Shown one piece after another: positions 35,581 to 36,289 of a stretch of 64,000 nt of DNA. The notes below the pieces were generated by a model. It saw nothing but the letters and a program-made list of their open reading frames with translations, did not search any database and was not told the DNA's origin. The translations under genes were made by a program, and so were the position numbers. Source of the DNA: Eledone cirrhosa (lineage: Eukaryota); assembly GCA_964016885.1 (NCBI GenBank), contig OZ024740.1, forward strand, positions 199,826,001 to 199,890,000, written 5' to 3'. Numbering within the stretch: position 1 is the stretch's first letter; each line of letters begins with the position of its first letter.

Positions 35581-35801
35581 AACTGTTTGTGTATGTAAGC
35601 GTTCTTTGATTTCTATGGATATATATAAATATATATATATATATATATATATATATATATATATATATATATATATATATATATATACATATACACACAC
35701 ATATATATATATATATATATATATATATAAAGAAAAAGGGATGAAATCGAAAATGCAACTGAAGTCTTATTTTTAAAAAAAATATATATATTTATTTGGT
35801 T

Positions 35802-35839
35802 CCTCTACCAGTTTCGCAGTTCTTCTGCTTTTCAAAAGG
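35802..35839 (-). ncRNA. Minimal hammerhead, U3-A8 variant (2 substitutions)
   Basis: Mirror image of 35910-35947. Confidence 0.7.
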
Positions 35840-35909
35840 TGAGTTGAGATGGAGGGTCTGTGGTTTTTCTCACATGTGAGAAAAACCACAGACCCTCCAT
35901 CTCAACTCA

Positions 35910-35947
35910 CCTTTTGAAAAGCAGAAGAACTGCGAAACCGGTAAAGG
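35910..35947 (+). ncRNA. Minimal hammerhead, U3-A8 variant
   Basis: CCTT-TTGAAAA-GCAG aagaa CTGC-GAAA-CCGG-TA-AAGG. Confidence 0.82.
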
Positions 35948-36289
35948 AACCAAATAAATATATATATTTAAAAAAAAAAAGAAGACTTCAGTTGCATTTG
36001 CGATTTCATCCCTTTTTCTTTATACTTCCACTCGTGTAGGACACCTCGGTTATTTTTCATTTTGTAAAAAAACCTCACTTTCTAATATATATATATATAT
36101 ATATATATATATATATATATATATATATGTGTATGTATATATATATATATATACACATATATATATGTATATATATATATATACACATATATATATGTAT
36201 ATATATATATATACACATATATATATGTATATATATATATACACATATATATATATATGTATATATATATATACATATATATATATAGG

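Follow-up and report, generated by a model that had tools for sequence, protein, structure and literature searches.

The palindrome at positions 35726-36086 of the 64,000-nucleotide stretch of Eledone cirrhosa DNA analysed here (the window) consists of two 3' ends (pseudo-LTRs) of a Penelope-like retrotransposon lying head to head. It is not a new element, and the head-to-head layout within (TA)n is a kind of insertion that has already been described. Across the family the arms finish at either of two fixed 3' ends (element positions 150 and 212), and each pair has one arm of either kind. Their 5' ends stop sharply below a TATA box, and the junctions fall into four registers. We consider it probable that such a pair is made in a single insertion, in which both cut target strands prime separate cDNAs whose ends are then joined.

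Architecture of the palindrome

The two arms meet at 35874|35875, in CTCACA|TGTGAG, and are 93.3% alike, the left arm of 149 nt (35726-35874) differing from the right arm of 150 nt (35875-36024) at 9 letters and a gap (Table 1). The original prediction had described a palindrome at this point with arms of ~150 bp, two hammerheads, a one-sided tail and TA flanks, and all of these were found; it treated the palindrome as a double-hammerhead element and did not recognise the end of a Penelope-like retrotransposon. The outer end of the left arm is common to most tailless arms of the family. At the fold junction, CTCACATGTGAG, the arms share the letters AT, and each ends 3 nt before the inferred RNA 5' end. 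In a tandem copy the 62-nt tail runs directly into the reading frame for the reverse transcriptase (RT) and endonuclease. The palindrome has no TATA box, and this copy, with neither promoter nor reading frame, is likely dead. Both arms contain a T/A run (35956-35980 and 35769-35792) of the form TnAm, with a total that is nearly constant at 13 in the younger subfamily; its variation could be a stall-and-add error of the RT. A repeat finder run on the window returned output dominated by microsatellites.

Table 1. Positions in the window of the palindrome, its parts and related copies
Feature	Position	Strand	Remarks
Left (TA)n target tract, some CA units	35619..35725	.	sequence
Inverted tailless pseudo-LTR arm, element positions 1-150	35726..35874	-	outer TATA merges with (TA)n
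Predicted minimal type I hammerhead motif, U3-A8 core, two substitutions	35802..35839	-	predicted cut between 35806 and 35805
Fold junction CTCACATGTGAG	35869..35880	.	
Direct pseudo-LTR arm, element positions 1-150	35875..36024	+	
Predicted minimal type I hammerhead motif, U3-A8 core, palindromic helix III	35910..35947	+	predicted cut between 35943 and 35944
62-nt tail, right arm only, without mirror	36025..36086	+	
Right (TA)n target tract with TG/CA units	36087..36288	.	
Single tailed copy, Neptune-type family	12682..12880	-	ends at 5' hot spot, 11-nt self-duplication
Head-to-head pair, Hydra-type Penelope-like	49992..50432	.	tailless arm 49992-50162, tailed arm 50176-50432

No molecule spanning the whole locus was found among reads from other individuals and contig pieces from another run, which is what a fold-back artefact of assembly or library preparation would give. 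The reads from other individuals match many family copies and are not specific to this locus; two contig pieces of the other run traverse the centre of the palindrome, with fewer than 31 letters on one side. An artefact would also have to produce the letter differences and gap between the arms and arm ends at two different fixed points. In addition the assembly holds 1,457 near-perfect fold-backs of this kind with centres of up to 30 nt, and their junctions are non-random and varied. We regard an artefact as hardly credible.

A single arm of the same family had been predicted at 12682-12870, ending near CTCACAT. This copy does share the endpoint, and carries in addition an 11-nt duplication of its own 5' end; the part at 12682-12868 (-) is without 26 nt that are present in the right arm of the palindrome.

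Penelope-like families in the window

A 25-nt part of the hammerhead has 12,884 exact matches in the assembly of 3.0 billion bases (~4 motif matches per Mb), and none when it is read backwards. Shared sequence extends further upstream in 7 of the 30 best DNA matches. One locus, L031, is a partial tandem in which a 212-nt unit, at 4652-4863 and again at 9625-9835, flanks a frame with an RT and a GIY-YIG endonuclease; 1.6 kb of upstream sequence is repeated too. The frame of L031 is broken, and the locus also has endonuclease pieces; over 534 aa the broken frame shares 74% identity with P0001, an intact relative that matches the RVT_1 profile below its curated cut-off and the GIY-YIG profile above it. 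P0001 carries the motifs GLKF, DKG and CGRPNCGTC, a CX4CxxC linker; L031 has the linker CGRSNCGTC upstream of its GIY-YIG core, and its DKG reads DKR. A Pfam search with the eight broken pieces of the L031 frame gave a single weak RVT_1 match. Judged by the motifs in PMC8557442, the family would be of the Neptune/Nematis type, a label given by motifs.

The family has the hallmarks of Penelope-like (EN+) elements: the RT and GIY-YIG frame, the pseudo-LTR tandem, a hammerhead in the pseudo-LTR and an inverted 5'-truncated copy with a tail at one end (37 of 79 loci). The available sections of PMC8557442 and PMC3846280 describe for EN+ Neptune/Nematis elements the same RT with a C-terminal GIY-YIG domain and a CX2-5CxxC linker, the same tandems and solo pseudo-LTRs, and likewise pseudo-LTRs that contain both a hammerhead and a TATA box. 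These sections also mention an inverted 5'-truncated copy beside the 5' end, a tail restricted to one end, and (TA)n as the target. The family described here differs in the length of the tail (62 nt, compared with 30-40) and in that about half of its arms are short pieces ending at one site, and the same passages contain neither a strict rule of one tail per pair nor junction registers. Both ends of the element lie inside (TA)n, where a target-site duplication is unreadable. Non-LTR retrozymes, in the available part of 10.64898/2026.07.22.740005, are also short non-coding derivatives of Penelope pseudo-LTRs that bear hammerheads, but they form head-to-tail tandem arrays with at least two hammerheads on one strand. 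Here the hammerheads are inverted with one per strand, and we therefore did not assign the palindrome to the retrozymes; nor did we class it as a MITE, because its centres vary and its arms enter the body of the retrotransposon.

The head-to-head pair at 49992-50432 belongs to another family. It had been predicted, for 49992-50430, that the two palindromes have the same architecture and unrelated sequences, and this holds: no match between them is longer than 9 nt. A relative, L142 (G000:C1:4679400-4685400, minus strand), has an uninterrupted 775-residue stop-to-stop frame between two pseudo-LTRs. The frame contains RWI as its RWK-like motif, DKT, YRDD and CNCRIKNKC (CxCX5C) and has no GxKF, and these motifs, with the (TA)n target of the family, would place it in the Hydra clade. 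The frame is 24% identical to P0001 over 236 residues. Many copies of the Hydra-type family are 99-100% identical, and the family is therefore very young.

A third head-to-head pair in (TA)n, at 2597-5385, shares no sequence relation with the other two; its arms of about 1,060 nt are 91.7% alike, the right arm alone bears a ~77-nt tail (5309-5385), and at 3884-4240 there is an endonuclease-like match. An older, asymmetric Hydra-type pair is located at 59937-60231, with a tailed arm that starts far downstream of the hot spot described below. Broken frames like the L142 protein occur at 152-1953, 31719-32319, 42093-42506 and 51932-53022 (all on the minus strand) and are probably further Penelope-like remnants. 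On the plus strand, the frames of 587 and 174 residues at 61205-64000 resemble what we take to be a Helitron replication protein, and those at 6122-7667, 9713-11799 and 20381-23537 presumably come from the LINE-type reverse transcriptases that they resemble.

One tailed arm in each pair

As an unbiased sample we took the first 100 exact motif matches, which come from 79 loci; all of these loci were used, and together they contain 118 arms in 37 head-to-head pairs and 44 single arms. Two loci with two arms each were counted as singles: L047, where each arm has its own (TA)n junctions, and L096, where the arms are tail to tail. Arms end at two fixed places, 212 (tailed) and 150 (tailless). Of the single arms 31 are tailed, 12 tailless and 1 other. 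Exactly one arm is tailed in 37 of 37 pairs, compared with 40% expected from the ratio among single arms (P about 2e-15); the rule stands at 37 of 38 when L047 is included, in which two tailed arms are head to head and 3.5 kb apart. Our script scored 34 of the 37 pairs as tailed-plus-tailless, 2 as tailed-plus-shorter and one, L039, as double-tailed; in L039 the alignment overruns, and the arm in fact ends at 124.

Pairs could in principle come from two independent insertions in one (TA)n tract, or from a later inverted duplication. The family is dense and targets (TA)n, the loci L047, L096 and L152 resemble such cases, and the arms of L098 are of different subfamilies. This origin is already largely refuted by the tail rule. 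It would also leave (TA)n at the centre, where there is none, or mirrored flanks, which are not observed, and it predicts tail-to-tail counterparts. Among the first 100 exact matches head to head is the sole orientation of pairs within 5 kb, with the exception of one degenerate tail-to-tail neighbour (L096) that was seen once the loci were examined. We give independent insertion or duplication only a slim chance.

The two arms of a pair are also closer to each other than to shuffled partners (2.4% compared with 3.8% divergence, p=2e-4), as a comparison of arm-to-arm with copy-to-copy divergence, proposed in the original prediction, reveals. The subfamily is identical between arms in 31 of 33 informative pairs, and both arms therefore derive from one event. 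In L098 (G000:C1:27051159-27052113), the arms from different subfamilies suggest two templates or a later conversion. At the palindrome of the window the arms differ at 4 of 115 sites, a larger difference than that between the right arm and the nearest unrelated copies (1.7%); the divergence between these arms says nothing in favour of either model. The T/A run is equal between arms in 4 of 29 pairs (2.4 by chance) and unequal in all five otherwise identical palindromes examined for it (5/5). These differences suggest that the arms were copied separately, and they could instead result from later mutation or assembly error. We also considered T-to-G changes specific to the tailed arm among the 30 best matches; these were set aside, as the matches had been selected by likeness to the query and the changes seemed rare in the unbiased rows.

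In the Hydra-type family an adjacent tailless inverted arm is present in 29 of the 30 best matches, a set biased to full-length tailed arms. A tailed arm is joined by a tailless one at 15 of the 19 Hydra-type loci that had been chosen for their head-to-head layout. Of the four exceptions, two lack a tailed arm, a third has arms that are both tailless and share identical flanks, and the fourth does not consist of a single pair.

A hot spot below the TATA box

In the 37 pairs of the unbiased sample the fold lies downstream of the 35874|35875 point in 12, within about 20 nt of it in 13, some 25 nt upstream in 1 and more than 100 nt upstream in 11. It had been predicted that the fold point is fixed at CTCACAT, with random variation among copies as the outcome that would speak against the idea. 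A fixed point has to be given up, the exact junction being present in only 5 of 49 hot-spot junctions and 1 of the 37 unbiased pairs, but the variation is not random. Among 100 arms that are intact to the fold point (by eye), 49 read through, 51 stop within five bases and none stops in the next eight.

The same place limits the single copies. Of 59 that are joined to (TA)n (by eye), 11 reach the C of CAGATG and none extends beyond it. In 7 of 7 long copies the sequence TATAAA is found 29-31 nt upstream of this C, and RNA likely starts at the fold hot spot, below the TATA box, as read from the sequence of the copies. The original prediction of a recurrent mechanism acting at a defined RNA 5' end agrees well with both the hot spot and the TATA box. 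A splice acceptor at the CAG was considered and rejected, because 11 of the 59 single copies retain the C. Cleavage by the hammerhead was likewise rejected as the source of the 5' end, since the cut site is ~70 nt downstream of the hot spot.

A cap-like base is seen in 4 of the 59 single copies of the Neptune-type family (by eye). In the Hydra-type family, which has no TATA box at -30, 15 of 49 arms at the hot spot add a non-genomic C on the cDNA strand, at one locus on both arms (by eye). The extra C resembles what copying of an RNA cap would leave.

For rotifer Penelope elements the available part of PMC3846280 proposes self-priming on an antisense transcript, which would explain palindromes at inverted junctions and intron retention. 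Such a process would also fit the exclusive head-to-head orientation of neighbours within 5 kb in the first 100 motif matches. Here the centre is ~30 nt below a TATA box on the sense strand, single copies end at the same place and the Hydra-type family adds its cap-like base there. These three observations together argue for the 5' end of a sense RNA, and we find it quite improbable that an antisense transcript made the palindromes.

Self-duplications of the 5'-terminal bases are present at the junction in several copies, at 12869-12880 and in L050, L084, L089, L094, L115 and L116. They look as though the cDNA end had primed afresh on the RNA start, once or repeatedly.

Junctions fall into pairing registers

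For two identical cDNA ends that stop at the C of CAGATG, pairing at the tips is limited to overlaps of 3, 6, 8 or 10 nt. In the first 49 fold-back loci (by eye) we observed these overlap forms 14, 10, 12 and 1 times, respectively, so that 37 of 49 junctions are in the four pairing registers; 2 are in nearby non-pairing registers and 10 are other or complex. Mirror forms of each register class relative to the tail were found. An AGATCT centre, which is also predicted, is rare. The junction of the window palindrome is consistent with the 8-nt register after trimming of the two mismatched tips, a type that accounts for 5 of the 49. Its centre could also have arisen through later perfection of a near-palindrome with an ACATCT centre.

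The reach of the two arms in the 5' direction was also compared in the 37 pairs. The tailed arm is the longer in 16 and the tailless arm in 13, and 8 are within 2 nt of each other. On reading, 8 of the 13 tailless-longer pairs are clear, with an excess of more than 400 nt in two of them and of about 370 nt in another; some arm-length calls in both classes stem from point changes, and later deletions at the centre of a palindrome could make either arm seem longer.

These observations bear on snap-back second-strand synthesis, the mechanism named in the original prediction. In this scheme a cDNA primed at the tail reaches the RNA 5' end, folds, copies itself to position 150 and joins the target. 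The tail rule, the matching subfamilies of the arms and the hot spot would all be accounted for, the 8-nt register permits a 2-bp stem with a 4-nt loop, and the tailed arm is the longer in 16 of the 29 informative pairs. Self-annealing fold-back is also described for L1-induced ends in the available part of 10.1101/2024.12.14.628481. Snap-back cannot, unless a later deletion is invoked, give a longer tailless arm, as found in 13 of 29 pairs (8 of them clear). A hairpin would fall into the same registers as two paired cDNA ends, but the 3- and 6-nt ones, which make up 24 of the 49 junctions, would leave loops of only 1 and 2 nt. In addition position 150 begins single copies as well (12 of 44), the T/A runs are unequal between arms, and the Hydra-type family can have its cap-like base on both. 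Snap-back is therefore not supported as the main route, and we consider it unlikely.

The palindrome could also be a non-autonomous unit, resembling a MITE or a retrozyme, that propagates itself by being copied in its entirety. Its exact 26-nt centre is found at 174 places in the assembly, and both of its ends are fixed. Among 15 loci, though, this same centre is present on at least four subfamily haplotypes, with one tail each, and the palindrome has therefore been remade and not copied whole. A unit of this kind would also not be expected to have widely varying centres, to extend into the 3' UTR of the element (as arms do in 11 of 37 pairs) or to be without a TATA box, and there are no tandem arrays of the palindrome among the 79 loci. 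We think this origin very improbable.

Predicted hammerhead motifs

Both hammerhead motifs of the palindrome have U3-A8 in place of C3-G8, a helix I of 4 bp, a helix II of 4 bp and the palindromic helix III ACCGGU; in the left motif (35839-35802) one of two substitutions breaks this palindrome. Helix I has 3 bp in the older subfamily and 4 bp in the younger. With a core that includes the 3-8 pair, helices I and II and a palindromic helix III, the motifs are predicted to belong to the minimal type I class. A hand-written strict descriptor, in which the helix III palindrome is required, gave two matches in the window (35910 and 12833) and none in each of 10 shuffles; a looser descriptor also picks up 35839. 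An Rfam scan of the window gave no hammerhead, only matches to microRNA hairpins and similar families under the cut-offs. No full hammerhead was obtained by free folding of the arm (z = -0.06), as is expected for a minimal motif. There was no covariation in the stems among the 118 arms, which had been selected by exact match to part of the motif.

The available part of PMC4209133 describes hammerheads in Penelope-like elements with the U3-A8 variant, also as opposite-strand pairs 100-700 bp apart. The minimal type I motifs described there resemble those predicted here in that helix I is short, an extra base precedes helix II, the closing pair is G-C, helix III is palindromic and the core is of the U3-A8 kind. 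Helix II of the motif predicted here is 4 bp, compared with 7-8 bp in the Schistosoma motifs.

The two hammerheads are on opposite strands, so that no single RNA has both in sense, and a read-through RNA of the palindrome would fold as one long hairpin and not as a hammerhead dimer. A role for the hammerhead is not needed for formation of the palindrome.

Discussion

The steps by which a pair would be made are inferred from finished insertions. The RNA would start at CAGAUGUGAG, ~30 nt below the TATA box of the pseudo-LTR, and the RT-GIY-YIG protein would nick both strands of a (TA)n tract. Priming from one 3'-OH would then begin at position 212 and from the second at 150; TATA-like letters adjoin both positions. 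Where priming takes place in the 5'-most pseudo-LTR, or the template is a short transcript of the pseudo-LTR, the cDNA would reach the RNA 5' end after 150-215 nt and run off; other cDNAs would halt further upstream, at points that vary. The 3' ends of the two cDNAs could then be held together by pairing of a few bases, or be joined bluntly, before they are filled in. If cDNA is made from one strand only a single arm may result, as at 12682.

More broadly, we slightly favour the view that twin priming is programmed in Penelope-like elements. A complex of two RTs would use both target strands and two fixed start sites on the RNA, copy the same stretch twice up to the capped 5' end, and have the products joined. 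The tail and the head-to-head repeat would then be a single phenomenon, present in at least two distant clades. In L1, Ostertag and Kazazian reportedly found in 2001 that the second primer lands variably and that the two cDNAs cover different parts of the RNA. In the elements described here, by contrast, the second site is fixed and copying of the same stretch twice would yield a palindrome. The two systems would have in common that both target ends prime and that the cDNA ends are joined, in L1 by short homology to give an inversion. The L1 study is cited in the available part of 10.1101/2024.12.14.628481. We found no paper that proposes twin priming for Penelope elements in our literature search, older subscription papers and supplements aside.

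Biochemical support for several of these steps comes from PMC11167929, in which a Penelope-like protein, predicted to be a dimer, was found in vitro to cut and extend both strands, with two internal start sites that bound the tail; the hammerhead was dispensable for insertion. This element, Poseidon of the green anole, resembles the family studied here in its two start sites, the use of both strands, its AT-rich targets and insertion without need of the hammerhead. It differs in belonging to another clade, and in the available part of PMC11167929 the start sites are not linked to head-to-head pairs. No difference in start site between the strands was reported, and the rule of one of each per pair is therefore not explained by that study.

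The palindrome at 35726-36086 is itself one dead copy among thousands, with a layout that has already been published. The origin of the inverted repeats and one-sided tails of Penelope-like elements is named as an open question in the available sections of PMC8557442 and PMC11167929, and self-priming, in the corresponding part of PMC3846280, is the sole model found in the literature consulted. What the thousands of insertions, from at least two clades, add are rules that can be counted: a single tail for each pair, an RNA 5' end at a fixed place and the pairing registers at the junctions. These rules favour two cDNAs, and they give precise predictions for an in vitro system that already exists. 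If the model is true, writing on both target strands would be routine for an RT related to telomerase, and short palindromes that form hairpins would be seeded throughout the genome as a by-product.
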